Below are positions 22,793 to 38,498 of a stretch of DNA of 38,824 bases, piece by piece. The DNA lies in the NCBI GenBank assembly GCA_050011015.1, contig JBEKJX010000013.1:1-38824 (forward strand), given 5' to 3'. The position numbers and the translations under genes were made by a program. Within the stretch, counting starts at the first letter, position 1. Every line of letters starts with the position of its first letter. This stretch comes from Smithella sp. GTDB lineage: Bacteria; Desulfobacterota; Syntrophia; Syntrophales; Smithellaceae. The notes under the pieces are model-generated. The model was not told where the DNA came from. It worked only from the letters and a program-made list of their open reading frames with translations, and made no database searches.

Positions 22793-22888
22793 TAAAAAGC
22801 CGGTTCGGGGCAATCCTGAAACTGTGTCCTTTGCCCGTTTGCTTTGCTTGGGCGACCGGGCTGTTGTGTTTGCTGCCGGTTATGCCAG

Positions 22889-23386: not shown

Positions 23387-23546
23387 TATTGATAATATCC
23401 TGTTTGCTTTGCCGCGCGACGATGTTCAATATATCTTTATAGAAATCTTATTTTGCCGGATTGCGGTATAACACCATTAGTGAATAATGGTCGTAACGAT
23501 TGCTGTCTTGTATTTATCGGTCGGGTTCAGACCAACAATTGCTCTA

Positions 23547-23792: not shown

Positions 23793-23910
23793 AATGTCAC
23801 CATTTTAAATTATAAATAATCGATTTTTGTATTTTACCGCTTTAAAGCATGCAGGTCCACTAAAAATTACCGGATTTTCTCTTTATAAAAAATCAGGTAA
23901 AGAAAATGCT

Positions 23911-25023
23911 TTAATATCTGCATAAAGGCTGGGAAGTTCCGTATCGGGTAAGAACGATCTGCCAGAGTTGAAGGTTCCGGGCACGGAAAGTTCCGGCGCA
24001 GGAAAGCAGATAATATTCCCACATCCGTTTGAACTTGTCATCGTATTTATCTTTCAATTTGTCCCAGGATTTTTGAAAATTTTCATGCCAGGCCAGCAGG
24101 GTCTTTTCATAATGAGGCCCCAGGTTGTGCAAGTCCTCCATGACAAACAGCCCTTCGATGGCTTTGCTTATCTGAGCGATGCTTGGTATCATCCCGTTGG
24201 GGAAGATATATTTGTTTATCCATGGATCGCTTTTGATGGTGGATTCGTTGCCGCCGATCGTATGCAGCAGGAAAATCCCGTTGTCCCGAAGGCAGCGGTG
24301 AACAGCTTTCATGAAGGTTTTGTAGTTTTTTTGTCCTACGTGTTCAAACATGCCTACGGAAATTATTTTATCAAATGTGCCCTGGAGATCCCGGTAATCA
24401 CAAGACAGGATTTTTACCGGAAAATTCTTGCATAAATCCCTGGCATGGCGAATCTGTTCGGATGATATATTGATGGCGGTCACATTGCAGTTGTAATGTT
24501 GGGCCATATATCTGGCAAATCCTCCCCAGCCGCTGCCGATGTCCAGGACGTGATCATTCTGGCGAAGATCAATCTTTTTGCAGATCAAATCCATTTTTTT
24601 GATTTGGGCGTCATTGAGATCTTTTGTGCCGTCGAAATAGGCGCAGCTATACTGATTGTAAGGGTCCAGAAAGGACATGAACAGGTCATTGTCAAGATCA
24701 TAGTGCCGTTTTGCAATAATGGAGGAACGTCTTTGGGACTGCTTGTTGAAAAGCATGGCGAATAATGAATTAATGAGAAATCTATATCCTTCCTTGATTT
24801 TTTCATCGAGTCTGATTTTCAATATCCTGTAAATGAATTCGTCGAGTTGATGACAGTTCCACCATCCTTCCATGTATGCTTCTCCAAGTCCCAGATTCTT
24901 GCTTTTTAGCGCCCGTGAAAAAGTCCTGTCATCTTTGACCTGGATGTCCCATGGATTGCTCCCATTGATAGCAATTCCGGCAGGTTTCAATATTTCTTCA
25001 ATCATATCACGATGGTTCAACAT
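23911..25023 (-). CDS. cfa: Cyclopropane-fatty-acyl-phospholipid synthase
   Basis: SAM motif VLDIGSGWGGFARYMAQHY. N-terminal LGLGEAYMEGWW and C-terminal WEYYLLSCAGTFRAR blocks are typical of CFA synthases. Confidence 0.9.
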   Translation of the reverse strand: MLNHRDMIEEILKPAGIAINGSNPWDIQVKDDRTFSRALKSKNLGLGEAYMEGWWNCHQLDEFIYRILKIRLDEKIKEGYRFLINSLFAMLFNKQSQRRSSIIAKRHYDLDNDLFMSFLDPYNQYSCAYFDGTKDLNDAQIKKMDLICKKIDLRQNDHVLDIGSGWGGFARYMAQHYNCNVTAINISSEQIRHARDLCKNFPVKILSCDYRDLQGTFDKIISVGMFEHVGQKNYKTFMKAVHRCLRDNGIFLLHTIGGNESTIKSDPWINKYIFPNGMIPSIAQISKAIEGLFVMEDLHNLGPHYEKTLLAWHENFQKSWDKLKDKYDDKFKRMWEYYLLSCAGTFRARNLQLWQIVLTRYGTSQPLCRY

Positions 25024-25222
25024 TTTATGATTCCTCCTTTTCTCCCTTCATTCCGAATCAAATAAAATTATATTTTTCTTACCATGTTCCGGCAGAAGAA
25101 TAGTCTTTTAATACATATATATGCATCACGTCCTGCCCATCGACAGGCAAATTGAAGGATTGGTTTCTGATTTGCGCTTTTTGGTCAGCCTTGGATTGGA
25201 AATGGATTTATCGGGCAGATAG

Positions 25223-25260
25223 AAAGCCTCCAAAAGGGCATATTCCCCTCTGGAGGCTTT
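25223..25260. terminator. Strong hairpin AAAGCCTCCA-N18-TGGAGGCTTT between the TMTC-like gene and cfa
   Basis: Perfect 10-bp arms read directly. The flanking T-tract is weak, so its role as a terminator is uncertain. Confidence 0.35.
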
Positions 25261-25468
25261 AAATGGACAATTTCATACAATATCTTCTTTTCATCGTCTG
25301 CTCCAAAAAGGTTAATTCTAAAGCAGGAATGTCCGGAGAAATATAGTTTTGATAAGAATTTTCTTACATTATAAATATCATAAGCAATTTGCTCCAGCAT
25401 GTCAATTGTTTTTTAGAATATTGCCGGTTTAAATATCGCATGGACGGAAAAAATAAATGTTAAGGGAA

Positions 25469-27166
25469 TCAGAAGCAGGTTCCCCTGCCTTTGGCGGCGT
25501 CCAGGAGTTTGCAATTTCCCAGTGTACATGCTTTTTGCGCGTCATGACAGCCGTTTTCCATATTCCCCTGATTTAAATAAATAATCGCTCTGTAGTTGTA
25601 AGCATCGGCAAAATCCGGTTTCAGCCGGATGGCTTCATTTAAGTCCTCAAATGCGCGTTGATACTGACCGAGTTTAACGTAAGCAACCCCTCTGTTGTAG
25701 AAGGCAGAGGCATGATTCGGGTTCAGGATGATTGCTTTATTATAATCCTCAATGGCACTTTGGGGCTTATCGAGTCCAAAGTAACCAATTCCTCTATTGT
25801 TGTAGAAATCGGCATTATCGGGGTTCAGCCGGATTGCCTCGTGATAATGATACATAGCTTCCTCAATTTTCCCTTCATCAAACAAGGCAAGACCTAAATT
25901 ATTATGCGCCACAGAATTATCCTTTGTTATCTGCAAGGCATGGCTGAAGAGTTTGATACTGTTTTTCCAGTAACCGCATTGTTGCCATGTTAAAACTGAC
26001 AAGATGGCAAGTAATGCTACACCTGCCGGAAATAAAATCATTTTGCGGATGTTTTCGCGCGGAAACAAAGATGGAATGCCCCAGGCAAGCCCAATGGCAA
26101 TGCCGATGGATGGCAGATAAATATAACGATCGGCCATCGAGTTGTTCCCTACAGGAATGATCCCGATTACAGGCAGCAGAGTTATGGAATACCATAGCCA
26201 TCCAACGAAAAGATACGGCCGACGTTTTATCTTTAAAATGACAGCAACACTGATGATAAGAATCAGAAAAGAAATTCCCAGGACAAGCCAATCAGGAAAT
26301 TGGCCGAAAAAAGGATAGCAAACAGCAAGATCCTTCGGCATAAATGTTTTCTCCAGATAAATTACAAAAGAAACGAGCGCGTTTATGATTCGTGATTCCA
26401 ATGGCAATGGCCAACCTTTTATGTACGCTCCAGGCTGGGCACAAATTGTAACAATAGAAAAAAACGCTGATAGAATAAAAAAAGGTAACTTTTCCTTCAA
26501 CTGCCATAAAACCAAATTAGTTTTATTTTTCAGTGATTTAAAACGTCGCAGCGGCCAGAAATCCAGAAGTATCATTATCACCGGCAGGGTGACAACCATT
26601 GATTTGCTCATAAGTCCGCAAACAAAGCAAAGAAGAACGAGCAAGTATCTTTTTATAACCGGTTTTTCCGTGTAATAAACATAAAAGCATAAAGTCAGCA
26701 TCCAGAAAAACGCGCTTAAGACATCTTTACGTTCGGCTATCCAGGCAACCGATTCCACATGCAACGGATGAAGCGCAAAAAATGCGGCGACAAAGGCGCT
26801 TTTCCAGATTGCTCCTGTCATGCGGTTAAAAAGCAAGAATAGCAATAGAGTGCTCATGATATGCAAGATAAGGTTGGTCAGGTGATAACCGCCTGCATTC
26901 AGGCCATAAAGCTGATAATCAAGCATCAGAAACAGCCATGTCAAAGGATGCCAGAATTCGGCATAGGTCGTGCTGAACGCCCAGCGAAATCCTTCCCGAG
27001 TTATTCCAGAATGGATATGAATGTTATCGGTGACGTAAACTTGATCATCCAGATAAACAAAACCGAATTGATTCACCTGCCAGAAAACGGCAATTGTAGC
27101 CAATATCAAAACGATATAAATGATCAGTTTCTGCCTTTGAGTGCTAATCTCTATCTTGTTCAACAT
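25469..27166 (-). CDS. TMTC-like membrane glycosyltransferase (GT-C/DUF1736-type N-terminal domain) fused to C-terminal TPR repeats, paralogue 1
   Basis: First-loop acidic motif YLDDQVYV, GGYHLTNLILH, and ALHPLHVESVAWIAERKDVLSAFFW (DUF1736-like). About 10 or more TM spans. TPRs AIRLNPDNADFYNNRG and similar. Cys-rich tail GCHDAQKACTLGNCKLLDAAKGRGTCF. Confidence 0.85.
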   Translation of the reverse strand: MLNKIEISTQRQKLIIYIVLILATIAVFWQVNQFGFVYLDDQVYVTDNIHIHSGITREGFRWAFSTTYAEFWHPLTWLFLMLDYQLYGLNAGGYHLTNLILHIMSTLLLFLLFNRMTGAIWKSAFVAAFFALHPLHVESVAWIAERKDVLSAFFWMLTLCFYVYYTEKPVIKRYLLVLLCFVCGLMSKSMVVTLPVIMILLDFWPLRRFKSLKNKTNLVLWQLKEKLPFFILSAFFSIVTICAQPGAYIKGWPLPLESRIINALVSFVIYLEKTFMPKDLAVCYPFFGQFPDWLVLGISFLILIISVAVILKIKRRPYLFVGWLWYSITLLPVIGIIPVGNNSMADRYIYLPSIGIAIGLAWGIPSLFPRENIRKMILFPAGVALLAILSVLTWQQCGYWKNSIKLFSHALQITKDNSVAHNNLGLALFDEGKIEEAMYHYHEAIRLNPDNADFYNNRGIGYFGLDKPQSAIEDYNKAIILNPNHASAFYNRGVAYVKLGQYQRAFEDLNEAIRLKPDFADAYNYRAIIYLNQGNMENGCHDAQKACTLGNCKLLDAAKGRGTCF

Positions 27167-27238
27167 ATCTTTTTCTGATTTCCTTTAATCACGCAAGTCA
27201 AACATCTGATAAAAATATATTCATAAATCTATATCATA

Positions 27239-27348
27239 TTAAGTTTTAAGATTTAAGATTTAAGATTTAAGGAAAAAAGTGAAAAGTGAAGAGTGAAGGG
27301 TGAAGAATTAACTTAAAACTTAATTATTTAAATCTTAATTACTTAAAT
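27239..27348. repeat. TTAAG-rich inverted arms flanking a GTGAAR tandem tract, copy 2 of 3
   Basis: Left arm ttaagttttaagatttaagatttaagatttaagg. Centre agtgaaaagtgaagagtgaagggtgaag. Right arm ttaacttaaaacttaattatttaaatcttaattacttaaat. cttaaaacttaa is the exact reverse complement of ttaagttttaag. Confidence 0.65.
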
Positions 27349-27356
27349 ATCACTTT

Positions 27357-29198
27357 TTACCGTTTAAGGCAGTATCCCCTGCCTTTAGCCGCTTCGAGGA
27401 GTTTGCAATCTCCCAGTAAACATGATTTTTGCGCATCATGGCAGCCGGTTTCGATATTCCCCTGATTTAAAGAAATAATCGCTCTGTTGTTGTAGGCATC
27501 GGCAGAATCCGGTTTCAACCGGATGGCTTCATTAAAGTCGTCAAATGCACTTTTTTGCCGGCCAAGTTTAACGTAAGCAACCCCTCTGTTGTAGTAGGCA
27601 TCGGCAAAATTCGGGTTCAGGATGATTGCTTTATTATAATCCTCGACAGCGCTTTGGGGCTTATCGAGTCCAAAGTAACAAATTCCTCTATTGTTGTAGA
27701 AATCGGCGCCATCGGGATTTAACCGGATTGCCTCGTTATAATGATACATAGCTTCTTCGATTTTTCCGTTTTTAAACAGGGCGGAACCTAAACTGTTATG
27801 CGCCAGATAATTATCCTTTGTTACCTGCAAAGCATGACTAAAGAGAGAGGCGCTGTCCCTCCAGTAACCGCATTGCCGCCATGTTAAGACTGCCATGATG
27901 GATAGAGCGGCTATTGAGGCCGGGAATAATATCTTTTTACGTATGTCTTCGCTATTAATTAAAAGCGGAATGCCCCAGGCCAGCATAACGGCAAGGCCGA
28001 TAGAGGGCAGGTAATGGTAGCGGTCGGCCATCGAGTATGGCATTACTAACGACACCTGAATTATCCCTATGACCGGTAGAATGGTTGTCGCGTACCAAAG
28101 CCATCCCACGAATAAGTACGGCAATCGTTTTGCCGTGACAATAACGGCAGCGCTGATAACAATAATCACAAGAGCGGCTCCAAAAACATGCCATACCGGA
28201 AGTTGATCGGAAAAAGGATAATAATAAGCCATGTCACTCGGCATAAATGTTTTTGCCAGATATGTCACAAAAGCAACCGGCGCGTTTGCAAGCCGGGAGC
28301 TAAGGGAAAGAGCTTTTAACGATGTCTTTTGATCCTCTGGAATATAAAGCGTGATGATAACAAGAATTGTCGACAGAATAAGAAATGGTATTTTTTCCCA
28401 TAGCTGCCATAAAGGGATAATTCCCGCGATTCCGGTTTCCGGTAATTTCCGGGAATCGGCTGAAGAAATGTTTTTCTTTAAAGCAACTTTGTTTTCTTTG
28501 TTCTTCTTTTTTCCTTTATTTGCGGCGACGGAAATATTTTCCGGTTCTTTAGCTGCTATTTCCCGCGATTGAAGGCGATTCAGCGGCCAGTAATCCAGAA
28601 GGATCATCACAAAGGGCAGGGTGACAACCATTGGCTTGCTCAAAAGAGCCAATACAAATGAAAAAAGAACAGGAAGGTATCTTTTTATAACCGGTTTTTC
28701 CGTGTAATAGACATAAAGGCACAAAGTCAGCATCCAGAAAAAGGCGCTCAGAACATCTTTGCGTTCAGATATCCAGGCAACCGATTCCACATGCAGCGGG
28801 TGAAGCGCGAAAAAAGCGGCGACAAAGGCGCTACGCCAGACAGCTCCGGTCATGCGGTTAAAAAGCCAGAACAGCAGCAGAGCGCTTAGTATATGCAGGA
28901 TAAGGTTGGTTAGATGATAACCGCCGGCATTCAAGCCATGAAGTTGATAATCGAACATGAAGGAAAGCCAAACGAGGGGGTTCCATAAACCAAAAAATTT
29001 TGTGCTGAACGCCCAGCGAAATCCATCAAAAGTGATTCCGGACTGAATGTGAATGTTCTCTAAGACATAAACGTGATCGTCGAAATTTACGTAACCATAT
29101 TGATTCACTTGCCAGTAAACGGCAAGCGTAACAACAGCCAAAATAATATAAACAATCAGTTTCTGTCTTTGCGGACGAATACTTACCTTATTTAACAT
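27357..29198 (-). CDS. TMTC-like membrane glycosyltransferase + TPR, paralogue 2 (with a Lys-rich ~48-aa insertion)
   Basis: Same motifs as paralogue 1 (NFDDHVYV, ALHPLHVESVAWISERKDVLSAFFW, Cys tail GCHDAQKSCLLGDCKLLEAAKGRGYC). Extra loop QSREIAAKEPENISVAANKGKKKNKENKVALKKNISSADSRK. Confidence 0.85.
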   Translation of the reverse strand: MLNKVSIRPQRQKLIVYIILAVVTLAVYWQVNQYGYVNFDDHVYVLENIHIQSGITFDGFRWAFSTKFFGLWNPLVWLSFMFDYQLHGLNAGGYHLTNLILHILSALLLFWLFNRMTGAVWRSAFVAAFFALHPLHVESVAWISERKDVLSAFFWMLTLCLYVYYTEKPVIKRYLPVLFSFVLALLSKPMVVTLPFVMILLDYWPLNRLQSREIAAKEPENISVAANKGKKKNKENKVALKKNISSADSRKLPETGIAGIIPLWQLWEKIPFLILSTILVIITLYIPEDQKTSLKALSLSSRLANAPVAFVTYLAKTFMPSDMAYYYPFSDQLPVWHVFGAALVIIVISAAVIVTAKRLPYLFVGWLWYATTILPVIGIIQVSLVMPYSMADRYHYLPSIGLAVMLAWGIPLLINSEDIRKKILFPASIAALSIMAVLTWRQCGYWRDSASLFSHALQVTKDNYLAHNSLGSALFKNGKIEEAMYHYNEAIRLNPDGADFYNNRGICYFGLDKPQSAVEDYNKAIILNPNFADAYYNRGVAYVKLGRQKSAFDDFNEAIRLKPDSADAYNNRAIISLNQGNIETGCHDAQKSCLLGDCKLLEAAKGRGYCLKR

Positions 29199-29383: not shown

Positions 29384-30934
29384 TTACAGTAATAATTGAT
29401 TGTCCATGGATCGCGTCTCCCCTATACTGGTAACATAAATTGCCGGTTGACCGAGAAGAGGACAATGTGACTCACACAGCCCGCAGCCAATGCATGTTTC
29501 CAGATCAACGTGCGGTTGATTTAAATACGATACGTTTCCGTTTCTGTTTATCACTTTTGCCTTTTCCAGCCAGATCGCTTTCTTCGGGACAGGACAAACC
29601 TCCTGACAAACAATACATGGCGTAGAGTGGGCATAAGGCAGGCATCTTCCTTTATCAATCAGAGCCGTGCCTATTTTTATTTTTTCTTTTTCCCGCAGTT
29701 CCAGTTTTTTTATCGCACCTGTCGGGCAGACCTGGCCGCAGAGAGTGCAGTGATGTTCACAGTAGCCAATTCGCGGTACCAGCACCGGTGACCAGATTCC
29801 CTCGATTCCGGCCTCCAGAAATGCCGGTTGAAGACCATTGGTAATACAGACCTTCATGCATTCGCCACATTTTACGCAACGGGCAAGGAATTGTTTTTCG
29901 TCGAGAGAACCGGGCGGCCGTATTAGTTTAGGCGTGGATGCGCCCGCCTGTTTGTTGATGGCTGTAATCCTGATCAGTGGAACGGCAACGAGACCGGACA
30001 AAATCATTCCTAGGATCCTTCTTTTGCCGAGATCAACAAAAGCAGCCGGCTGCGTCTTTTTAAAAAATCCAAACCGAACGGCATTTTGAGGGCAGAGATC
30101 ATCACAATTCATGCAAACCAGGCACTCCGTATTATGCCAGTTTTCTTTTTTATCGGGAGAGGCGTTCCCCTGACAATCAAAAGTACAGGCTCCGCAGGAA
30201 TTGCAGCCTTCGCTGACCTGTCGCGTTAAGAAGGAATAACGGGAGAGCAGGCCCAGAAGCGCCCCCAGAGGACAGAGATATTTGCACCAGAAACGTTTTT
30301 CGAGAAGGTTCAGTCCCAGAATGATGAAGAACAATAATCCCAGAAAAACGCTCTGAAGAAAAAACAGCTGCTGGAAAGGAAGCCAGAGTTTTTTAAAAAG
30401 CGTATAGATAAATTCGGAAATGCTGCTCAGAACAGGAATGTTTAAATTGTAAAACATATCAAATACAGCCCGCGTTGCATAACTTGCCGCCGGGTAAACT
30501 GACAACGACAGTGAACGAATCAAAAGTGAAACAGGGTCGAATACTCCTGTGAATTGCAGGGAAAAGAGGGACATGGTAATCAAAAATATCAAGAGGCAGT
30601 ATTTCAACCAATGCCAGTTTAAAGGTATTCTGGGTGGTCGCTTCTTTTGCAGCGTACCGACAATGTTGTTAAGCGTTCCCAGAGGACATACCCAGCCGCA
30701 GAAAACCCTGCCCATGATAATAGTAACAGCGATCACCAAAATGGCCAGGAAAAATGTATTATACCATGCGTGGCTGGAAAGGATTGTGGTGATGAAAATC
30801 AGCGGGTCGGCATCCAGAAATATTTTAACGGGATAGCCGAGTTCATCGGCTCCTTTTGATTCAGTCTGCAGAAAGAGCCACAAAAATGTCAGCAAAAAAA
30901 GTCCCTGTGTTGCTATGCGGATTTTTCTAATCAT
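29384..30934 (-). CDS. Membrane-bound polyferredoxin of the NapH/NosR-C-terminal type (multiple 4Fe-4S motifs)
   Basis: N-terminal RIATQGLFLLTFLWLFL. Two CxxxCPxG membrane-associated motifs (FCGWVCPLGTL, WCKYLCPLGAL). Ferredoxin motifs CNSCGACTFDC, CLVCMNCDDLCP, CVKCGECMKVC, CTLCGQVCP, CIVCQEVCP, CIGCGLCESHCP. Confidence 0.85.
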   Translation of the reverse strand: MIRKIRIATQGLFLLTFLWLFLQTESKGADELGYPVKIFLDADPLIFITTILSSHAWYNTFFLAILVIAVTIIMGRVFCGWVCPLGTLNNIVGTLQKKRPPRIPLNWHWLKYCLLIFLITMSLFSLQFTGVFDPVSLLIRSLSLSVYPAASYATRAVFDMFYNLNIPVLSSISEFIYTLFKKLWLPFQQLFFLQSVFLGLLFFIILGLNLLEKRFWCKYLCPLGALLGLLSRYSFLTRQVSEGCNSCGACTFDCQGNASPDKKENWHNTECLVCMNCDDLCPQNAVRFGFFKKTQPAAFVDLGKRRILGMILSGLVAVPLIRITAINKQAGASTPKLIRPPGSLDEKQFLARCVKCGECMKVCITNGLQPAFLEAGIEGIWSPVLVPRIGYCEHHCTLCGQVCPTGAIKKLELREKEKIKIGTALIDKGRCLPYAHSTPCIVCQEVCPVPKKAIWLEKAKVINRNGNVSYLNQPHVDLETCIGCGLCESHCPLLGQPAIYVTSIGETRSMDNQLLL

Positions 30935-31025
30935 GTAAAACCTCTACAGGCCGATATGTGCCTTTCCCTTTATATCGCTGCAGGTCCTGATAGTAACGGG
31001 AGATTCAGCGCCTCATAAAAAATTA

Positions 31026-31928
31026 TCAGATATTTATTTTTTTAATTCTTAATCCGGCAATGTCCATGCTGCCGAGTCCGGCTTTGTGTCCTGCTACGAC
31101 ATAGCCGAGATTTGTCCCTTTCAAACCGAAGAGTGTGGCGCCGAAAGCGTCGACGGCCACCTGATCCCTTCCTGCAATGACTGTATTGAGTTGCCTGACA
31201 TCGGCAAGGTCGCCTCCCTGCGGTCCGTTTGCAGTCAGTATGCGCACCGCGTCAAGAATGATCAGCGCGGGCTTGACGGCCATGGCCAGATCCACCAGAC
31301 TGCCGTTGATGCTCTGGTGTATCCTTCCTCGTGAACTGCCCATAATTCCCATCAGGTTCTTCATTCCCAGAGTAAGAGTGGACAGGCCGTGTGTTTTGGC
31401 GATAGGAATATTAATAAACTTGTCCGCCTCGAGTGCTTCGGTATAAAAAGGCCATGATTTCAAGGCAACACCGGCTAATTTTACTTCACGGAATTTTCTA
31501 TCATCTATATAGCTAACAATTCCGCCCGCGGCAGTGGCTGCATCCAAAATGCCGCTTTGTTTATAGCAGCGCCGCGGATCGACAACACTATGGTCGAAAA
31601 CCTTAACCTGTTTTGCCCCTGCTTCGTAACACAAAGTGATCACTGCCGAGACTACTTCCGGATTGGTTGTTGCCGCATATGCCGGCAGCCTGTCCCACCC
31701 GATATTCGGTTTAACGACCACAATATCTCCCCTGGAGATGAAAGCTTTGATTCCGCCTAAAGCATCGATGGCCGCTTTTGTTATTTGGGCAGGTGAAAGG
31801 CCGTGAACTGCGACAAGGTCTGATTTTTCCGCGGCTTCCAGAGTTTTGAAAAATAAGTTTGAAGCGCCCGGTATGGCAAAAGCCGCGCCGGCGATAACAG
31901 TGGTTTTGAGAAAGTTCCTGCGATTCAT
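31026..31928 (-). CDS. Tat-signal DUF362-family protein (300 aa)
   Basis: Start trimmed to the ATG at 31928, giving MNRRNFLKTTVIAGAAFAIPGAS (canonical twin-arginine signal). DUF362-like core DIVVVKPNIGWDR...INIPIAKTHGLSTLTLGMKNLMG. Confidence 0.8.
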   Translation of the reverse strand: MNRRNFLKTTVIAGAAFAIPGASNLFFKTLEAAEKSDLVAVHGLSPAQITKAAIDALGGIKAFISRGDIVVVKPNIGWDRLPAYAATTNPEVVSAVITLCYEAGAKQVKVFDHSVVDPRRCYKQSGILDAATAAGGIVSYIDDRKFREVKLAGVALKSWPFYTEALEADKFINIPIAKTHGLSTLTLGMKNLMGIMGSSRGRIHQSINGSLVDLAMAVKPALIILDAVRILTANGPQGGDLADVRQLNTVIAGRDQVAVDAFGATLFGLKGTNLGYVVAGHKAGLGSMDIAGLRIKKINI

Positions 31929-32034
31929 AGCACACCCGTAAAAAAATTTTAGTAAATGTTCATTCCATGAATTCGGTAGCGAACGCATTCCCCGTGGCTT
32001 GCCTTGGGAGAGCTTCAAAATAAAAACGCCTGTG

Positions 32035-32982
32035 TCAACCGCCCGCATCGGAACCGGTTCGTTTACTCATCTGTTCGATAAATTGTCTGGCCAGAGAATT
32101 ATTTTTGACCCTGACCGCGCCGATGATGTAACGTCCCGACTGCCGGGCCACTACGCCGCCATACAAGGGATCAACCGCAGTGATCATCCTTTGATTCGCC
32201 TTTCCGGTCAATTGAATGCTTCCGGTCTCAGCTTTCAGATAAGCATAGTATTGATCAAAAACCCTGTGGGCATCAGCCGGCGTATCCTCGTGTATTGCAA
32301 ATATCTGCATCTTTTCATCCTGCGCCACGGCATCTGCTATCAGGCCTTTGCGAAAGAACGCATACCCGAGCAGACTTTGGGCAAGATACCGTTCGCTCTT
32401 TGGCGCAAGCGCAGGAATCTTCAGAATCTCCAGTTCCCTGGGCTCGCCTGCTCCCGCCGGAAGATTTTTGGAGATAGCCCGGGCGCATGCCAGCAATGTG
32501 TCCTTCGGGAGACTTGTTTCTCCGGAGACTTGCAACTTTATAAAATATCTGTCCTGATAAAAAATTAACTGCGAAGGCGACACAAATCCTTCGGCGCCTA
32601 TGGCGACCCAATTATCACTTGTCTTGCGGTAGTTGGAATAAATTCCAAAAGCATCAAGCACAGAGGCCATTCTGTAGACATCGGCATCAATGGCCAAATC
32701 CTGATTCTTCTTATTGATATAATTTGCCGAAGCCAGAACGTCGAACCCGTAGGATAAGTAGAGCTCGGCTTCTCCATCGATATGATTAAACAGAGTATTC
32801 CTGTCGTAAAATTCGACCGCTCCCCCGATGGCCCATTCTCCGGAAAATCCCGGTCCGGAAAACACATCTTTGATTGCCGGTTGGGTAGCCCGGGCGGGAC
32901 AAGACATCATCATGATCAACAGGGCAAAGACAAATGCCGAAATTGCCGTCAGGATGCCTGATCGTCCCGGGGATGATATCAT
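32035..32982 (-). CDS. Secreted protein or lipoprotein of unknown function
   Basis: Start trimmed to MISSPGRSGILTAISAFVFALLIMMMSCPARA, a signal peptide with a possible lipobox Cys. An alternative ATG lies at 33057. The ORF-track start at 33288 would overlap the upstream gene by 224 nt. Confidence 0.6.
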   Translation of the reverse strand: MISSPGRSGILTAISAFVFALLIMMMSCPARATQPAIKDVFSGPGFSGEWAIGGAVEFYDRNTLFNHIDGEAELYLSYGFDVLASANYINKKNQDLAIDADVYRMASVLDAFGIYSNYRKTSDNWVAIGAEGFVSPSQLIFYQDRYFIKLQVSGETSLPKDTLLACARAISKNLPAGAGEPRELEILKIPALAPKSERYLAQSLLGYAFFRKGLIADAVAQDEKMQIFAIHEDTPADAHRVFDQYYAYLKAETGSIQLTGKANQRMITAVDPLYGGVVARQSGRYIIGAVRVKNNSLARQFIEQMSKRTGSDAGG

Positions 32983-33064
32983 GACATCCCCGAGACACTG
33001 TCGAAGCTCAAAGCGATAGCCGGTCAAAGACGGCCTGATATTATAATGATCGTACATGTTTTTT

Positions 33065-34213
33065 CTATGCCAATAATTTTCTGGCTTGCGCCATCTTTGT
33101 CGGAATATCAAGGCCGTTGACACACTTTGCCGCACAAGTCTGACAGGTAAGACATGCGGAGGCTGAGGCAGCCGCGGGAATTTCACGGTAAGTAGACCGG
33201 GAAAGTTCCATGTTTTTGTATGCTTCTCCGTACATGACGCACCGATTGATCGTGCTGATTTCCACACCTTTGGAGCAGGCAGGTTCACACTTTCCGCAAA
33301 AGTGGCAGTAATAGGGCTTTACGGCATCGCCGTAACGTTTCAGGATAAGTTTGTCGAAGTAACTTAATTTCAGACCCATCACCCCTATGTCTTCTCTAAG
33401 TTCCGCCAGATTCCGCATGCCGGGGATTGCCGCCGTGACATTTGTATCCTGAAGCGCCCATTTAAGGGCTGCCCGATGAGGACTGATGGGGCCAAGCTGA
33501 TCCGTTTGGTAACCGCCGGCCTGGGTTTTCATCGCGATGATGCCGATTTTGTGAAGGGCGGCTTTCGCGATGGCTTCCTTCAAATCGTTGCCGCTCTTGA
33601 AATTATAAGCCACCAGAGCTGTATCAAAAAATTTATCTTTATCTTCCATTAAAGCATTGAGCACCTGCACCTGGTTTGTATGCGTGGTCACCCCGAAGAA
33701 ACGCGCCTTTCCCTGCTGTTTCAGTTTTACCAGCGCTTCCCTGATTTCCGGAGAAAAAATCCTGACTTTATCGGTAAGGTTGTGCAGTTGGATGACATCT
33801 AAATAATCGGTATCGAGCGCTTTAAGGCTTGTTTCCACGTCCTTGAAAATGGCTTCTTTTGTTATGGAGTCGGGCAGGATCTTTGTTGCGACATATACCT
33901 TATCGCGTCTGCCTTTTAATGCCCGGCCCACGATTTCCTCATTCTTTCCGCCCATATATTTACGTGCCGTATCGACATAGTTGACACCATGATCGAAAGC
34001 AATTTCCAAAACCTCCGGTTCCGGTGTTAACATCGCGCCAAAGCTTACAATCGTAATCTTCAGGCCTGTCCGGCCAAGTATTCTGTAAACGGGTGCGGGA
34101 AAGACGAAGGGTTCCGTTACTGTTTTCTCCAGAATTTGGGCGAAAGCGCTCGACTCTATCAGGGTTGATGTTGTTACTATCACACCGGACTTCAAGAAAT
34201 CTCTTCTGTTCAT
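33065..34213 (-). CDS. Aldo/keto reductase-family oxidoreductase with twin-arginine signal and a C-terminal Cys-rich (Fe-S) domain
   Basis: MNRRDFLKSGVIVTTSTLIESSAFA Tat-type signal. AKR core with VDTARKY (Asp/Tyr), ATK (Lys) and QLHN (His). C-terminal CHFCGKCEPAC and CLTCQTCAAKC. Confidence 0.85.
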   Translation of the reverse strand: MNRRDFLKSGVIVTTSTLIESSAFAQILEKTVTEPFVFPAPVYRILGRTGLKITIVSFGAMLTPEPEVLEIAFDHGVNYVDTARKYMGGKNEEIVGRALKGRRDKVYVATKILPDSITKEAIFKDVETSLKALDTDYLDVIQLHNLTDKVRIFSPEIREALVKLKQQGKARFFGVTTHTNQVQVLNALMEDKDKFFDTALVAYNFKSGNDLKEAIAKAALHKIGIIAMKTQAGGYQTDQLGPISPHRAALKWALQDTNVTAAIPGMRNLAELREDIGVMGLKLSYFDKLILKRYGDAVKPYYCHFCGKCEPACSKGVEISTINRCVMYGEAYKNMELSRSTYREIPAAASASACLTCQTCAAKCVNGLDIPTKMAQARKLLA

Positions 34214-34502
34214 TTCTATGCTCCTTTCTTTTGCCTAAGCATAAAATGATTGTGAAAACATATAGCCCCGATTATAGTTAAGCCGTTGGTAAAACAGTAT
34301 CAGTCCGAAAGATTATATCACAAAACAAAAAGCGGTCTATCTATTGATGTGTAATGGTTAATTATATGAAAAGAATGCTTGCCAGTCAATAAAAATTCCT
34401 GCCGCGGGAAAATAAAAAATGGCAGAATTCTTGCTTTAAATATGATACATACTGTTAAACAGATCTATTTGTTAAGATTTTGTCATTCAGAAGGGGAAAG
34501 AT

Positions 34503-35681
34503 GTGAAAATATTATATTATGACTGTTTTTCCGGTATCAGCGGCGATATGAATCTGGGCGCCATGATTGATCTTGGAGTTCCGCTTGCGTATCTCACAGG
34601 CGAACTCAAAAAAGTTGATATAGACCCCTATGAGATATTAATGCATTCGGATAAGCGTAAGGGAATCGCGGGCACACGGATCGAAGTCGCCATTTTGCCG
34701 CACGATCCCTCACACGGGCATCGCACATTTCATGACATCTCCGGATTGATTCAACAAAGCGGCCTGTCTGAAAATGTAAAAATGATAAGCCTGAAAATCT
34801 TTGAGAAACTTGCCAGGGCAGAGGCGCACATTCACAGTCAGGAAATGGAAAATGTTCACTTCCACGAAATCGGAGCCGTCGATTCCATCATTGATATCGT
34901 CGGTGCCGCCGTTTGTCTCGATTATTTTAAGGTAGATCGGATTATGTCATCTCCTGTGCAGGTGGGAGGAGGCTTTGTAAAATGCGCTCATGGTATTCTG
35001 CCCGTTCCCGCGCCGGCGACGGCGGAGATATTAAAAGGCATCCCGGTAAAATCCGGTCTGGTTCCCTTTGAAACCACAACGCCGACGGGGGCGGCCATCC
35101 TCGCGGCCACAGTGGACAACTTTACGGACAACATAAATATCATCGCCGGGAAAATCGGATACGGCATCGGGCAGAGGGACACGGAGGTTCCGAATGTCCT
35201 GAGGGTTTATCTTGGTGAAATGGATAATCCCGCCTTTGATGAAGACGTTGAGGTAAAGGAAGCCTATCTGGTGGAATGCAATATCGACGATATGAATCCG
35301 GAACTTTACGGTTGGATCCTTGATGCCCTGTTCGAAAAAGGAGCATACGACGCTTACCTTGCCCCCATCATCATGAAGAAATCGCGTCCGGCTGTAAAGA
35401 TAAGCATCCTCTGCGGCGCAGGAGAGCTTAAAGACATCGAGGAAATCCTCTGGCTGCAAACGACAACATTCGGTTTACGAGTCGCAAAGGTCCGTAAAAA
35501 AATGTTGCGCAGGGACTTTTCAACACAACTCACGAAGTACGGCGAAGTCTCCGTCAAGAACGGCTATTTCCGGGGAAAGAAAATCAAATCCAAGCCGGAA
35601 TATGAAGACTGCCGGAAGCTGGCCGGCGAAAAAGGAGTCGGCATCAAGGATATATATGACAGCCTGGATAAGAATGACTGA
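34503..35681 (+). CDS. larC: LarC, nickel insertase for the nickel-pincer nucleotide (NPN) cofactor (DUF111 family)
   Basis: GTG start with SD AAGGGGAAAG. MKILYYDCFSGISGDMNLGAMIDLG, HFHEIGAVDSIIDIVG, and a C-terminal EYEDCRKLA block. Single uninterrupted ORF. Confidence 0.88.
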   Translation: MKILYYDCFSGISGDMNLGAMIDLGVPLAYLTGELKKVDIDPYEILMHSDKRKGIAGTRIEVAILPHDPSHGHRTFHDISGLIQQSGLSENVKMISLKIFEKLARAEAHIHSQEMENVHFHEIGAVDSIIDIVGAAVCLDYFKVDRIMSSPVQVGGGFVKCAHGILPVPAPATAEILKGIPVKSGLVPFETTTPTGAAILAATVDNFTDNINIIAGKIGYGIGQRDTEVPNVLRVYLGEMDNPAFDEDVEVKEAYLVECNIDDMNPELYGWILDALFEKGAYDAYLAPIIMKKSRPAVKISILCGAGELKDIEEILWLQTTTFGLRVAKVRKKMLRRDFSTQLTKYGEVSVKNGYFRGKKIKSKPEYEDCRKLAGEKGVGIKDIYDSLDKND

Positions 35682-36493
35682 TGAATCCGGATGAAAAGTA
35701 CAAAAAGCTGCTTGATTATCTGGCCTCCCTGCAATCCGGCATTGTTGCCTTATCGGGTGGAGCAGATAGTTCTTTTCTGCTTTCGGCCGCAAGCGATGCT
35801 CTGGGGGAAAGGGTGATGGCTGTTACGGTTTCCACACCCTACATATCGAAGCAGGAAATCATGGATGCGGCCCGGACGGCCGGGGGAATGGGGGTTAAGC
35901 ATAAGCTGCTCGAATTGCCGTTGATTGATGAAATAAAACTCAACCCCGAAAACCGTTGCTATCTGTGCAAACATTACCTGTTCTCCGTTTTGAAAGAAGA
36001 AGCGAAGAAAGAGGGAATGCGTTTTGTTATGGATGGGACGAATGCCGACGACCTTCATGATTACCGGCCGGGGATCAGGGCTTTAAAAGAACTGAATATT
36101 GTGAGTCCTTTCCTGAATCAGAAATGGACTAAAAACGACATACGGAATGCGGCAAAGAAGAGTGGTCTCGGCAATTGGAATAAACAGCCGGGGGCATGTC
36201 TGTTATCCAGAATGCCTTATGGACATGAAATTACTCTTCATGAACTGGAAATGATCGAAAAAGCCGAACAGTATTTAACCGGCATGGGTTTTGAATTTGT
36301 CAGGGTCCGCAGTTATGGAAATCTGGCGCGGATTGAGGTTCTGCCCGAAAACAGAAACAGATTCTTCTTCGAAGGTGTTCTGGATGAAATATCAGGCGCT
36401 CTCAGGGAGATAGGATATCTTTTTGTAACCATGGATCTTGAGGGTTATCGGATGGGCGGCATGAATCGTGAACTATCAGGGAAAAACAATTAA
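35681..36493 (+). CDS. larE: LarE, ATP-dependent sacrificial sulfur transferase (PP-loop ATP pyrophosphatase)
   Basis: PP-loop ALSGGADSSFLL. Conserved Cys loop QPGACLLSRMPYG. The start overlaps the larC stop (TGATG). Confidence 0.88.
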   Translation: MNPDEKYKKLLDYLASLQSGIVALSGGADSSFLLSAASDALGERVMAVTVSTPYISKQEIMDAARTAGGMGVKHKLLELPLIDEIKLNPENRCYLCKHYLFSVLKEEAKKEGMRFVMDGTNADDLHDYRPGIRALKELNIVSPFLNQKWTKNDIRNAAKKSGLGNWNKQPGACLLSRMPYGHEITLHELEMIEKAEQYLTGMGFEFVRVRSYGNLARIEVLPENRNRFFFEGVLDEISGALREIGYLFVTMDLEGYRMGGMNRELSGKNN

Positions 36494-36504
36494 AGGTTCA
36501 TAAT

Positions 36505-37254
36505 ATGAATAAAGATCAATTGCAGAAATTTCTGGAAAAAGTAAGAGACGGACAAATCACCGTAGAGGAAGGCATCGCCTCTCTTAAAGATTATTATTAC
36601 GCGGATTTAGGATGCGTCAAGCTTGACACTCATCGGGAAACGCGCGTGGGTTACCCGGAGGTGATATACTGTCCCGGCAAGACCATTGATCAGGTAAAAA
36701 CGGTGGTTCGGGCCATGTCGGAGAGAAACTCCAATATCCTCGCGACACGGGCGGACGAGAATGTGTTTAATGCGGTCCATGAGGTTTGTCCCGACGCCGT
36801 CTATCATTCAACGGCAAAAATCATCACGGTCAAAAAAAAGGATTTGGACATACCGGACAGTTACATCGCCGTCGTCACGGCCGGAACATCGGACATTCCG
36901 GTGGCGGAGGAAGCGTACGTTACGGCGGAATTTTTCGGTAACCGTGTCGAAAGAATAGTAGATGTCGGTGTGGCGGGCATTCATCGCCTGTTCCACAATA
37001 TGGACAAGATCAGGGGGGCGCGGGTAATTATTGTTGTTGCCGGAATGGAAGGGGCTCTTCCCAGCATCATTGGCGGGCTGGTGGATAAACCGGTTATTGC
37101 CGTGCCGACCAGTGTGGGTTACGGCGCCAGTTTTGGCGGTATCTCGGCTCTTTTGACCATGCTCAACAGTTGCGCCAGCGGTGTCTGCGTGGTTAATATC
37201 GATAACGGCTTCGGAGCGGGATACGTGGCCGGCATGATTAACCGTTTGAAATGA
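36505..37254 (+). CDS. larB: LarB, nicotinic acid adenine dinucleotide carboxylase/hydrolase (PurE-like)
   Basis: PurE-like C-terminal half VAVVTAGTSDIPVAEEA...VVAGMEGALPSIIGGL...VIAVPTSVGYG, with the N-terminal extension typical of LarB. Confidence 0.88.
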   Translation: MNKDQLQKFLEKVRDGQITVEEGIASLKDYYYADLGCVKLDTHRETRVGYPEVIYCPGKTIDQVKTVVRAMSERNSNILATRADENVFNAVHEVCPDAVYHSTAKIITVKKKDLDIPDSYIAVVTAGTSDIPVAEEAYVTAEFFGNRVERIVDVGVAGIHRLFHNMDKIRGARVIIVVAGMEGALPSIIGGLVDKPVIAVPTSVGYGASFGGISALLTMLNSCASGVCVVNIDNGFGAGYVAGMINRLK

Positions 37255-37352: not shown

Positions 37353-38498
37353 TCAACGATTTAGATTTGTATGTATTATTTTTGCGCCGTCAAAACCGTT
37401 AAATTTTGTCGAAGAGGCAATACTGTACGCGCCGATATTTTCAGTAAGCAGATAATCTCCGATTTCCAGATTTCCCGGAAGCGAAACGGATTGGGATATT
37501 TTATCGAAACTGTCGCAAGTTTGTCCGACGACGGCACAGATTTCTTTTTCTCCATTCCTGAATGCGGTGAAATTGGGAAGCCAATGATCAAAGATCACAC
37601 CGGAAAAGGTATGATAAACGCCATCATTGATGTAATAGAAAATCTTCCCGTCTCTTCTGGATTTTCCGATGATTTCGGTGATCAGCGTTGCCGCGGTTGC
37701 CGCGATGAATCTTCCGGGTTCGGCTATAATTTCGACATCCGGAGGGAAGAGTCTTTGACATTCGGAATTGATGAGGCTTGCCAACTTTTCAAATTCTGGA
37801 ATCTGAGCATCATAGGGCACGGGAAAACCTCCGCCGATATCTATGATCTTCAAGCCGTATCCCTTTTTCCTGGCATTATTGATTATTTCAGATGTGATGG
37901 CAAGCGCTGCCGTATAATTGTCAAAATTTGTGCACTGGCTTCCCACGTGAAAACTCAACCCTTCAACCACAAGACCGGCATCGTGCGCCTGACGTAAAAG
38001 CTTCCCCGCATCTCCCGGCTCCGCTCCGAATTTCGAACTCATCTCAACTTGCGAACCTGAATCCGGCACCTTCAATCTTAGAATCAGGCCGGCCGTATTA
38101 CAGCAGGCCTTGATTTTCTTCAGTTCATCGCTATTGTCGAAGGTGACAAGGGGCCGGTATCTTTTTATCTTGCTCAGTGTTTTTTTGTCTTTGATGGTAT
38201 TGGAAAAAATAATCTTATCCCAGATAAAAAATTCCTGATCTTCTTCTTCGAAATGCTTGATATATTCGTAGATCTGCATGAATTCGTTGTAGGATGCGAC
38301 ATCAAAACTGGATCCTTCCAGAAAAAGGGTTTTGATGATCTCCGGATGGGTATTGGCCTTGACCGCGTAATAGCATTGGACCCTTGGCAGATTTTTCTTA
38401 AAGGTCCGGTAATTGCGCCTCAGCTTTTTGTGATCCATGATGAACAGGGGAGTCCCATGCTGTTTTATCAGTTCGGCAGTCTGTTTTTTCATTCTCAT
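37353..38498 (-). CDS. Type III PLP-dependent decarboxylase (ornithine/lysine/arginine decarboxylase-like, alanine-racemase fold)
   Basis: YAVKAN PLP-lysine motif, SFHVGSQ, IDIGGGFP, and EPGRF blocks. Confidence 0.85.
   Translation of the reverse strand: MRMKKQTAELIKQHGTPLFIMDHKKLRRNYRTFKKNLPRVQCYYAVKANTHPEIIKTLFLEGSSFDVASYNEFMQIYEYIKHFEEEDQEFFIWDKIIFSNTIKDKKTLSKIKRYRPLVTFDNSDELKKIKACCNTAGLILRLKVPDSGSQVEMSSKFGAEPGDAGKLLRQAHDAGLVVEGLSFHVGSQCTNFDNYTAALAITSEIINNARKKGYGLKIIDIGGGFPVPYDAQIPEFEKLASLINSECQRLFPPDVEIIAEPGRFIAATAATLITEIIGKSRRDGKIFYYINDGVYHTFSGVIFDHWLPNFTAFRNGEKEICAVVGQTCDSFDKISQSVSLPGNLEIGDYLLTENIGAYSIASSTKFNGFDGAKIIHTNLNR

Follow-up and report, generated by a model that had tools for sequence, protein, structure and literature searches.

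[quoted passage not shown] This arrangement suggests, without proving, that a nickel-pincer enzyme works outside the cytoplasm and is wired to a membrane iron-sulfur protein. We consider it probable (roughly 0.55) that the AKR resembles the recently published NPN-dependent AKRs but differs from them in being exported and connected to Fe-S clusters, and that the DUF362 protein is a second candidate client that has not been described previously.

The stretch of DNA analysed (hereafter the window) spans 38,824 nucleotides of contig JBEKJX010000013.1 (assembly GCA_050011015.1) and comes from a Smithella-like bacterium (Syntrophales). A first-pass annotation made from the sequence alone had reported a larC-larE-larB cluster divergent from a four-gene Tat/membrane redox operon with no LarA in sight, and this observation is confirmed, as evident by the presence of all seven genes at the coordinates listed below. 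Two details of that account required correction. The protein described only as carrying a signal peptide belongs to DUF6599, and the polyferredoxin described as NapH-like is a NapH-NapG fusion whose scores are far below the cut-offs of both families.

Features of the lar locus and the divergent operon (start codons of the minus-strand genes as corrected in this study)
Positions	Strand	Feature	Length	Sequence characteristics
29384-30934	-	NapH/NapG-like membrane polyferredoxin	516 aa	Five TM-like segments; CX3CP motifs at residues 79 and 217 and 2x CX2CX2CX3C at 244 and 271 in the NapH-like half; internal GKRRILG motif and TM segment (307-325); four Fe-S motifs (353, 392, 440, 481) in the NapG-like half
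31026-31928	-	Tat-signal DUF362 (PF04015)	300 aa	N-terminus MNRRNFLK
32035-33057	-	DUF6599 (PF20244)	340 aa	Hydrophobic signal-like N-terminus
33065-34213	-	Tat-signal AKR (PF00248) with C-terminal 2x[4Fe-4S] domain	382 aa	N-terminus MNRRDFLK; two CX2CX2CX3C motifs (Cys303/306/309/313 and 354/357/360/364)
34214-34502		Divergent intergenic region	289 bp	Minus-strand sigma-70-like site TTGACT-17-TATAAT (34389-34361) facing the AKR operon
34503-35681	+	larC, fused LarC1-LarC2 nickel insertase	392 aa	Full length; GTG start
35681-36493	+	larE, PP-loop sulfur transferase		SGGADS; CXXC-C motif (Cys93, Cys96, Cys173)
36505-37254	+	larB, NaAD carboxylase/hydrolase		

Each of the three Lar proteins exceeds its NCBIfam cut-offs, with LarC1 scoring 218 bits against 90, LarC2 139 against 50, LarE (TIGR00268) 285 against 150, and LarB (NF033503) 309 against 175, and LarC also matches PF01969 at E=6e-140. 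The larC and larE genes overlap by one base (TGATG), and larE and larB are separated by 11 nt. The cysteines of LarE indicate the [4Fe-4S]-dependent type rather than the sacrificial type (PMC9283937). The gaps within the minus-strand operon are 7, 106 and 91 nt, the shortest of which separates the AKR stop from the DUF6599 start. In Pfam searches the AKR matches PF00248 at E=1e-37 with additional weak Fer4 hits, DUF6599 matches PF20244 at E=3e-34, DUF362 matches PF04015 at E=3e-52, and the polyferredoxin matches Fer4_5 and Fer4 families. The polyferredoxin scores only 104 bits against the NapG cut-off of 269 and 100 bits against the NapH cut-off of 213, and its two halves are separate genes at one other locus (L088; L numbers denote the individual loci that were compared). 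The sigma-70-like site is good but represents a pattern match to the consensus only, and no Rfam family matches the intergenic region. No open reading frame of 60 aa or more in the window matches a LarA profile at E<=10, and no Lar_N or LarA_C Pfam hit occurs in any large open reading frame.

The first-pass annotation also proposed that one of the exported neighbours is the client of the NPN cofactor, and this interpretation is partly supported. It rested on the premise that NPN normally serves LarA-family enzymes, which is outdated because NPN-dependent AKRs, identified through this same kind of lar adjacency, were published in 2026 (PMC13524815). That study reports 427 AKRs that lie next to larBCE without larA, and its representative NphT (PDB 9YEB) binds nickel through His144 and tethers the cofactor covalently through Lys200 as a thioamide. 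A profile search against the PDB with the AKR family of the window ranks NphT (9yeb_A) second at E=7e-20, and it is the only hit that spans the whole 5-195 profile. In this alignment, D80, H144, T176, H178, M228 and K229 of the window AKR fall on D47, H106, T142, H144, I199 and K200 of NphT, although the alignment stops before the W218/Y219 contacts of NphT. Canonical AKRs carry other residues at the His and Lys sites.

The statement that no LarA is in sight is likewise only half true, because DUF362 belongs to the same Pfam clan as LarA_N (CL0471; PMC11770544). An AF2 model of the DUF362 protein (pLDDT 66, pTM 0.72) was compared with the PDB by using Foldseek, and the top 16 hits are all LarA or LarA-like NPN enzymes (best E=6.5e-7). 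The models generated by AF2 are mediocre, however (pLDDT 58 and 66). Lactiplantibacillus plantarum LarA hits the DUF362 HMM at E=8e-5, whereas the DUF362 profile does not reach LarA by sequence in the PDB. Among 78 sequences of 35-49% identity, His180 and Lys190 are invariant and His204 is kept in at least 90% of members. An hhalign comparison places His180 on LarA His174 and Lys190 on LarA Lys184, but this alignment is weak (E=0.048, probability 1%), and no equivalent of LarA His108 was identified. The His/Lys pair is apparently kept.

We examined 80 LarC-anchored loci. LarA is present nearby at one of these, DUF362 at seven, and AKRs with a His at the NphT position at eight. Moreover, lar genes adjoin the modules of the operon in four distinct arrangements with divergent Lar proteins. 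The window type is found in L004, L005, L008-L010, L047, L105 and L106. A second type (L012-L015, L017 and L130) carries LarC only 58-60% and LarE 41-44% identical to those of the window, and a third (L054) carries Lar proteins of 35-37% identity. In the fourth type (L153, L159 and L169), a Tat-signal DUF362 gene is directly divergent from larCEB. Independent proteins with the AKR+2x[4Fe-4S] architecture also reside in or beside lar clusters, including a larB-larC-larE-ECF-AKR operon of C. butyricum and loci L158 and L130, and these keep the His but not the Lys.

The adjacency is not universal, however. Five relatives (L001, L002, L016, L019 and L022) keep the four-gene operon with no lar genes within 10 kb, and about 57 species keep only AKR+DUF6599, with the His/Lys motif intact, and none has lar nearby. 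DUF6599 is the constant partner of the AKR and follows it in nearly all of the 80 species-level loci. DUF362+polyferredoxin pairs in L088, L102 and L103, and DUF362 alone in L104, also lack lar genes, and larE is missing from the cluster in several close relatives (L004, L009, L010 and L106). These comparisons are restricted to gene neighbourhoods, such that the whole-genome presence of larBCE in these genomes and of a canonical larA in this one was not assessed. Genomes encoding the His/Lys AKR-FeS protein include, for example, OY970063.1, OY764159.1, OY760142.1 and OY821638.1.

Given these findings, we propose that LarB, a [4Fe-4S]-type LarE and LarC build NPN in the cytoplasm, and that NPN is then installed on the apo-AKR, tethered through Lys229 as a thioamide with His178 bound to nickel, as in NphT. 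The two [4Fe-4S] clusters of the AKR would be loaded as well, and the folded holo-protein would leave the cell through the Tat pathway. The RRxFLK N-termini of both candidate clients fit the export of proteins that have already bound their cofactors, and in this view DUF362 is a probable second NPN-binding subunit exported in the same manner. In the periplasm, these proteins would work with DUF6599 and dock on the NapG-like half of the polyferredoxin, while its NapH-like membrane half would connect them to the quinone pool or to cytoplasmic Fe-S carriers. The net reaction would be the oxidation or reduction of an unidentified periplasmic alcohol, carbonyl or hydroxy-acid substrate, wherein hydride chemistry at NPN replaces NAD(P)H, which is absent from the periplasm. 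The transfer of single electrons from a hydride-carrying NPN to Fe-S clusters has no precedent. Our analyses demonstrate the gene content, domain architectures, Tat motifs, residue-level match to NphT, fold match of the DUF362 model to LarA and recurrent lar adjacency, whereas cofactor loading, export, complex formation, the direction of electron flow and the substrate are inferred, there being no biochemical data. If correct, this scheme would place an NPN enzyme in electron exchange with a membrane Fe-S protein outside the cytoplasm.

Several other explanations must be weighed against this scheme. The adjacency might be coincidental or merely inherited, in which case larCEB would serve a client encoded elsewhere (either a canonical LarA or a cytoplasmic NphT-type AKR) and the operon would encode an NPN-independent periplasmic Fe-S oxidoreductase. 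This view draws on the five relatives noted above that keep the operon without lar genes nearby, and on other Syntrophales lar clusters that reside beside nikR-cbiMNQO (L007) or nadC (L006) instead. Likewise, copies of the window-type arrangement share flanking synteny (ornithine decarboxylase, deoxyhypusine synthase), so they count as a single event. We regard this possibility as unlikely because there are four different arrangements with Lar proteins 35-88% identical to those of the window, because chance placement within 10 kb is roughly 0.5% per genome, and because of the NphT motif in the AKR, the predicted LarA-like fold of DUF362 and the near absence of LarA from related lar clusters.

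A somewhat less likely alternative is that DUF362 is the only NPN client, acting as a minimal exported LarA-like enzyme fed by the polyferredoxin, and that the AKR-FeS/DUF6599 pair is a separate module that happens to be co-transcribed and uses its His/Lys for something else. Consistent with this reading, lar adjacency was seen only where DUF362 is present (0 of about 57 AKR+DUF6599-only loci have lar), no AKR is visible in L153, L159 and L169, and the DUF362+polyferredoxin and AKR+DUF6599 modules are separable, being 50 kb apart in one contig. However, the AKR match is to a structurally proven NPN enzyme and is stronger than the DUF362-LarA residue match, AKR-FeS proteins occur in lar operons that have no DUF362, and three distant DUF362 clades have no lar genes nearby. 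The contigs of L153, L159 and L169 end at or just beyond DUF362, and therefore an AKR further along is not excluded. It seems least likely that the AKR is a conventional nicotinamide-dependent enzyme that carries tightly bound NAD(P)(H) through Tat, as Kv-beta subunits hold NADPH, with the Fe-S domain re-oxidising it and NPN playing no part. The full-length sequence does score slightly better against canonical NADPH-binding AKRs than against NphT, and the canonical catalytic residues D80, Y85, K110 and H144 are present. Yet NphT keeps D47 and H106, the counterparts of D80 and H144, so these residues do not discriminate, whereas the His and Lys at the NphT cofactor positions are absent from canonical AKRs and lar genes lie beside the gene.

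Among known systems, the COG1453-type AKR-FeS protein of the C. butyricum megaplasmid lar operon shares the AKR+2x[4Fe-4S] architecture, the His at the NphT nickel-ligand position and co-location with lar genes. It has no Tat signal, carries Glu where the tethering Lys would be, such that any binding would be non-covalent, and lacks the DUF6599, DUF362 and polyferredoxin partners. The NapGH quinol dehydrogenase of periplasmic nitrate reductase systems likewise combines a membrane subunit bearing CX3CP motifs and cytoplasmic 2x[4Fe-4S] clusters with a periplasmic four-cluster ferredoxin. In the window these two are fused into one protein with an internal RR motif before the connecting TM segment, no nap genes are nearby, and the partners are DUF362 and AKR-FeS rather than NapC/NapAB.

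The DUF362 model matches only structures of the LarA superfamily (lactate racemase and other 2-hydroxyacid racemases/epimerases; PDB 5HUQ) in the PDB, and the DUF362 EAD...H-x9-K motif aligns with EAD...His174-x9-Lys184 of LarA and is followed by a His 14 residues after the Lys (16 in LarA). No DUF362 protein has been shown to bind NPN, and the window protein gives no Lar_N or LarA_C Pfam match. At 300 aa rather than about 420, it is too short to hold a LarA_C domain, which carries the substrate-binding residues Gln295 and Lys298, and it has a Tat signal and is paired with a polyferredoxin. NphT (Semersky et al., Nat Chem 2026; PMC13524815) shares with the window AKR a TIM-barrel fold, a His two residues after a Thr at the end of one barrel strand, a Lys after a hydrophobic residue at the end of another, and a gene location next to larB/C/E with no larA nearby. 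NphT is a soluble monomer of roughly 290 aa that shuttles hydride between organic substrates, and the main text of the paper mentions neither a signal peptide nor an Fe-S domain. In contrast, the twin-arginine N-terminus, C-terminal 2x[4Fe-4S] domain, fixed DUF6599 partner and operon-encoded membrane polyferredoxin of the window protein imply electron exchange with a respiratory-type chain outside the cytoplasm.

An open reading frame listing and family scans confirmed the gene map proposed in the first-pass annotation, in which a larC-larE-larB cluster lies divergent from a four-gene minus-strand operon with no larA in sight. The operon starts 289 bp from the lar cluster, and its genes occur in the order AKR, DUF6599, DUF362 and polyferredoxin. 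The closest relatives of this DNA are Smithella and Smithellaceae MAGs. The coordinates of these genes are collected below, together with those of other features of the window and of the loci used for comparison.

Positions of the features examined in the window and in the loci compared with it
Feature	Location	Strand	Description
larC	window 34503-35681	+	fused LarC1-LarC2 protein; overlaps larE by one base
larE	window 35681-36493	+	SGGADS and Cys93-x-x-Cys96...Cys173; 11 nt from larB
larB	window 36505-37254	+	
AKR	window 33065-34213	-	382 aa; N-terminus MNRRDFLK; two C-terminal CX2CX2CX3C motifs
DUF6599	window 32035-33057	-	start 7 nt after the AKR stop
DUF362	window 31026-31928	-	300 aa; N-terminus MNRRNFLK
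Polyferredoxin	window 29384-30934	-	516 aa; NapH-like half fused to a NapG-like half
Phosphopantetheine-binding, AMP-binding (acyl-activating) and acyltransferase domain fusion	window 2010-4859	+	949 aa
TetR regulator gene	window 6457-7041		precedes the 362-aa protein
Protein with C-terminal 2x[4Fe-4S] domain	window 7094-8182	+	362 aa; first roughly 270 residues match no Pfam family
DNase II family protein	window 10239-11378	-	379 aa; PF03265 at E=1.7e-74
TPR protein	window 16227-16970		third TPR protein besides the tandem paralogues
ORF with no family match	window 17237-18472	+	411 aa; antisense inside the permease gene
Amino-acid permease gene	window 17270-18667	-	
Low-GC span	window ~22000-29000		G+C 0.38-0.42, against about 0.50 in neighbouring stretches
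Tandem PMT_2-like/TPR paralogues	window 25469-27166 and 27357-29198	-	565 and 613 aa
Ornithine/DAP-type PLP decarboxylase	window 37353-38498	-	downstream of larB
Decarboxylase and deoxyhypusine-synthase-like pair	L004:12311-14650, L005:11279-13620		relatives with the window-type arrangement
50-aa larE remnant ORF	L004:11179-11371		between larC and larB
Split larE	L006:2774-3535		two ORFs; Syntrophales lar cluster not linked to the operon
Separate NapH-like and NapG-like genes	L088:10903-12451		locus with a DUF362+polyferredoxin pair
larB-larC-larE, ECF (Ni/Co-type) transporter and AKR	L099:7253-13862		C. butyricum CBM588 megaplasmid NZ_CP132345.1

LarB, LarC and LarE each score well above their NCBIfam equivalog cut-offs, and the cysteines of LarE form the CXXC-C signature of the [4Fe-4S]-dependent, non-sacrificial LarE type. 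In contrast, no ORF of 60 aa or more in the window matches a LarA profile built from nine sequences at E<=10, and no Lar_N (PF09861) or LarA_C (PF21113) Pfam hit was found in any window ORF. The window therefore holds no canonical member of the LarA superfamily, although the search for larA was confined to the window and did not extend to the rest of the genome. A search for a regulatory RNA in the divergent region between the two gene clusters also found none.

The polyferredoxin is NapGH-like in architecture only, as evident by scores of 104 bits against a NapG cut-off of 269 and 100 bits against a NapH cut-off of 213, and it is not a member of either family. Its NapH-like half has TM-like segments, CX3CP motifs at residues 79 and 217 and two cluster motifs, and is followed by an internal twin-arginine motif (GKRRILG) just before the TM segment that leads into the NapG-like half, which has four cluster motifs. 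This arrangement raises the question of how the Fe-S-loaded C-terminal half crosses the membrane, perhaps by dual Sec/Tat insertion.

Other genes of the window were noted in the same scans. The DNase II family is mainly eukaryotic, and therefore its presence in a Smithella-like bacterium is unusual. Each of the two tandem paralogues has a PMT_2-like membrane glycosyltransferase half and a C-terminal TPR half, and their N-termini are nearly identical. These genes, along with a cyclopropane-fatty-acid synthase gene, fall within the low-GC span. The ORF antisense to the permease gene is probably not a gene. The 362-aa protein with a C-terminal 2x[4Fe-4S] domain, in which no other domain is recognized, does not match our DUF362 or LarA profiles.

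Two publications alter the premises of the first-pass annotation, which held that NPN is normally delivered to LarA-family enzymes and that no LarA-like ORF is visible in the window. Semersky et al. (Nat Chem 2026, PMC13524815) mined larC neighborhoods that lack larA, found 427 adjacent AKRs, and showed that one of these, NphT (PDB 9YEB), binds the cofactor covalently through Lys200 with His144 on nickel. The main text of that report does not mention Fe-S domains, signal peptides or the periplasm. In addition, a 2024 survey of LarA proteins in JBC (PMC11770544) uses DUF362 as an outgroup because DUF362 and the LarA N-terminal domain share Pfam clan CL0471. A 2024 mBio paper states that about 15% of genomes have larBCE but no larA. 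In the literature we could search, we found no paper that links DUF362 to NPN and none that mentions nickel-pincer together with periplasmic, and neither the exported, Fe-S-wired context nor the DUF362 candidate is described there.

The AKR of the window has the TIM-barrel fold expected for its family, as evident by a match to PF00248 at E=1e-37, by a predicted barrel core with pLDDT values of 75-94 in an AF2 model whose overall pLDDT is 58, and by the fact that all top Foldseek PDB hits are AKRs. NphT could not be recovered by this structural comparison because the fold library stops in April 2026. Sequence searches of the PDB with full-length, sub-sequence, sub-profile and X-masked queries left 9yeb at rank 6-11 or lost it altogether. 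However, a profile of the window's AKR family cut at residue 240 ranks 9yeb_A second at E=7e-20, and this is the only hit aligned across the whole profile. In the resulting alignment, window GVT176-T-H178 falls on NphT GIT142-G-H144 (SEQRES 145-147, where SEQRES numbering is that of the paper plus 3), and M228-K229 falls on I199-K200 (SEQRES 202-203), such that His178 and Lys229 occupy the positions of the nickel ligand and of the covalent thioamide tether, respectively. His178 is invariant in 29 family members and Lys229 is likewise invariant in the family, whereas canonical AKRs have Ser/Asn/Leu-type residues at the His site and Ser at the Lys site. Both residues sit just after barrel strands in the AF2 model.

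Of the other residues that contact NPN in NphT, D47, H106 and T142 align with window D80, H144 and T176, but the alignment ends at NphT residue 205 and does not reach W218 or Y219, and therefore agreement over the full set of contacts is left undecided. Cavity size, which in an NPN-dependent AKR is expected to leave no room for AMP, was not examined, and neither nickel nor a +450 Da adduct was assayed on the protein. The remaining property expected of this family is a location next to larB, larC and larE with no larA nearby, and this holds both for the window and for relatives of three arrangement types.

The DUF362 protein has a predicted LarA-like fold. Its AF2 model (pLDDT 66, pTM 0.72) has LarA or LarA-like NPN enzymes as its top 16 Foldseek PDB hits, with E-values from 6.5e-7 to 3.7e-4 and TMq values of 0.40-0.51 over about 260 columns, and nothing else is comparable. 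L. plantarum LarA also hits the Pfam DUF362 model at E=8e-5. However, sequence profiles of DUF362, both shallow and diverse, do not reach LarA in the PDB, and an hhalign comparison against a single LarA sequence was uninformative. Among 78 DUF362 sequences only 35-49% identical to that of the window, the invariant residues include K178, H180 and K190, and H204 is kept in at least 90%.

A profile-profile comparison with nine LarA sequences gives a single weak hit (E=0.048, 1% probability), which falls on the active-site stretch and places EAD on EAD, H180 on LarA His174 and K190 on LarA Lys184, the cofactor tether. H204 corresponds to the nickel ligand His200 by spacing only, and thus these comparisons do not settle whether the tethering Lys and the nickel-binding His are retained. 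The same must be said of the two catalytic His residues and the C-terminal-domain substrate residues (Gln295 and Lys298) of LarA. A His174 equivalent is present by the weak alignment, but the match covers only LarA residues 155-187 and therefore does not extend to His108, and by eye no conserved His sits at the corresponding position. At 300 aa and with no LarA_C Pfam hit, the protein is too short to hold that C-terminal domain. DUF362 also weakly matches the NCBIfam family NF052623 ('Npun_F2552 family') at 3e-22, far below the cut-off. The name of this family appears to derive from a cyanobacterial (Nostoc punctiforme) locus tag, although this derivation was not checked. Cyanobacteria are reported to have larBCE but no larA (PMC11796402), and therefore a DUF362-type client in these organisms is conceivable, although untested.

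Two proteins of the operon resemble Tat substrates. We sought a twin-arginine motif (S/T-R-R-x-F-L-K) followed by a hydrophobic stretch, and judged this criterion to be satisfied by the AKR, which starts MNRRDFLKSGVIVTTSTLIESSAFA, and by DUF362, which starts MNRRNFLKTTVIAGAAFAIPGA. The Pfam TAT_signal model scores 19 bits on DUF362, below its cut-off of 22.7, and export itself was not assayed. The DUF6599 and polyferredoxin genes complete the operon between and beyond these two.

The first-pass annotation had named neighborhood statistics for larBCE with DUF362, AKR and NapH-like genes as a means to evaluate its proposal, and we carried out this comparison at the level of gene loci. When anchored on the AKR, with one locus fetched for each of 80 species and all AKRs at least 63% identical to that of the window, lar genes were found within 10 kb in three arrangements. 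The window-type arrangement with a divergent larC(E)B occurs in L008-L010 and L047. In a second arrangement, termed type B (L012-L015 and L017), larC-larB lies upstream on the same strand and larE is divergent, with LarC 58-60% and LarE 41-44% identical to the window's. In L054 the operon is reordered and is followed by a 3-hydroxyacyl-CoA dehydrogenase gene and then by larE-larB-larC, whose products are 35-37% identical. Type B Lar proteins are more distant from those of the window than are the proteins of unlinked Syntrophales lar clusters (L006 and L007, LarC 72-75% identical), and they are therefore a separate lineage. In contrast, the four-gene operon occurs with no lar genes within 10 kb in L001, L002, L016, L019 and L022, of which L001 and L002 came from protein look-ups and not from the 80-species scan, and about 57 loci carry only AKR+DUF6599, likewise with no lar genes within 10 kb. 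No LarA occurs in any of these loci.

Some of these clusters show further differences. In several close relatives (L004, L009, L010 and L106) larE is missing from between larC and larB, and in L006 it is split, such that the cofactor pathway may be decaying there or LarE may be supplied from elsewhere in the genome. The decarboxylase gene downstream of larB is followed in relatives by a deoxyhypusine-synthase-like gene, and this polyamine-type pair is syntenic across the window-type loci.

When anchored instead on LarC, 80 metagenome loci were fetched, with LarC 49-88% identical and a median length of 8 kb. LarA is present in 1 of these loci and the four-gene operon in 3. In 3 more (L153, L159 and L169), Tat-DUF362 is directly divergent from larC-larE-larB, which represents a fourth arrangement. 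No AKR is visible in these three, but the contigs of L153 and L169 end inside DUF362 and that of L159 ends about 225 bp beyond it. A DUF362-Fer4 protein lies 6.5 kb from lar in L128. AKRs with the NphT-position His are present in 8 loci, of which three are NphT-like His/Lys proteins and several are AKR-FeS proteins with the His only. In addition, larB-larC-larE, an ECF transporter and an AKR with a 2x[4Fe-4S] tail form a single operon on the C. butyricum megaplasmid (L099), where the AKR keeps the NphT-position His but has Glu in place of the tethering Lys.

The idea that DUF362 is generally lar-adjacent was rejected, because DUF362+polyferredoxin pairs in L088, L102 and L103, and DUF362 alone in L104, have no lar genes nearby, these loci comprising L088 and three distant clades. 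An attempt to place larC on the same large contigs as the lar-less operons gave a match only for the 412-kb Smithella contig, and therefore co-occurrence of larBCE with these modules was not evaluated at the level of whole genomes. Roseobacter plasmids that seemed to carry larC without larA proved to have LarA-domain genes that are annotated differently or split, as evident by a 'lactate racemase domain-containing protein' encoded directly upstream of larC in L101, and the syntenic position in L100 holds two unnamed ORFs. Overall, recurrent juxtaposition in several independent forms argues for a functional link, but this link is facultative at the level of gene order, and AKR+DUF6599, DUF362+NapH/G and larCEB are separable modules.

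The gene arrangement that prompted this analysis is real, whereas the accompanying proposal that an exported neighbor is the NPN client gains only partial support. In the mechanism that we propose, NPN is made in the cytoplasm and loaded on the AKR (Lys229, His178) and probably on DUF362 (Lys190, with His204 as the possible nickel ligand by spacing only). Both proteins would be exported folded through Tat and would then exchange electrons, through the AKR's own clusters and the NapG-like periplasmic domain, with the NapH-like membrane part. The gene content, the residue-level match of the AKR to NphT and the neighborhoods are direct observations from sequence, and the predicted fold comes from models of modest quality, whereas this mechanism is a proposal for which no biochemical data exist, and neither the substrate, the direction of electron flow nor the way in which two-electron hydride chemistry would be split into one-electron steps has been identified. 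NAD(P)H is absent from the periplasm, and therefore a self-contained hydride cofactor fits an exported AKR, although this argument rests on established knowledge plus inference.

A more far-reaching possibility, which is not excluded by our data but which we consider less likely than not, is that DUF362 (PF04015) is a second, minimal branch of the LarA superfamily that still binds the nickel-pincer cofactor through its invariant Lys190/His pair. Together with the His/Lys AKR-FeS, it would form a Tat-exported periplasmic enzyme complex in which hydride chemistry at NPN is coupled through chains of [4Fe-4S] clusters and a NapGH-like membrane polyferredoxin to the quinone pool. Such a complex would be the first NPN enzyme outside the cytoplasm and the first to feed a respiratory-type electron chain. 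It would also give a function to a very large family of unknown function (6429 representative-cluster hits in our search), and could explain part of the roughly 15% of genomes that have larBCE but no larA.

NPN is one of the rarest organometallic cofactors, and until 2026 it was known only in cytoplasmic LarA racemases and epimerases, to which NphT added a cytoplasmic AKR. If our reading is correct, NPN chemistry extends to an exported enzyme, to coupling with Fe-S electron transfer and a membrane quinone-linked conduit, and possibly to DUF362. Lys229 and His178 in the AKR and Lys190 and His180 in DUF362 are concrete targets for the question of what larBCE-positive, larA-negative organisms do with the cofactor. 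The AKR shares with NphT the barrel fold, the His and Lys at the nickel-ligand and tether positions and a location beside lar genes without larA, and what is new relative to the kind of enzyme published in 2026 is the twin-arginine N-terminus, the C-terminal 2x[4Fe-4S] motifs and the operon shared with DUF6599, DUF362 and a NapGH-like polyferredoxin.
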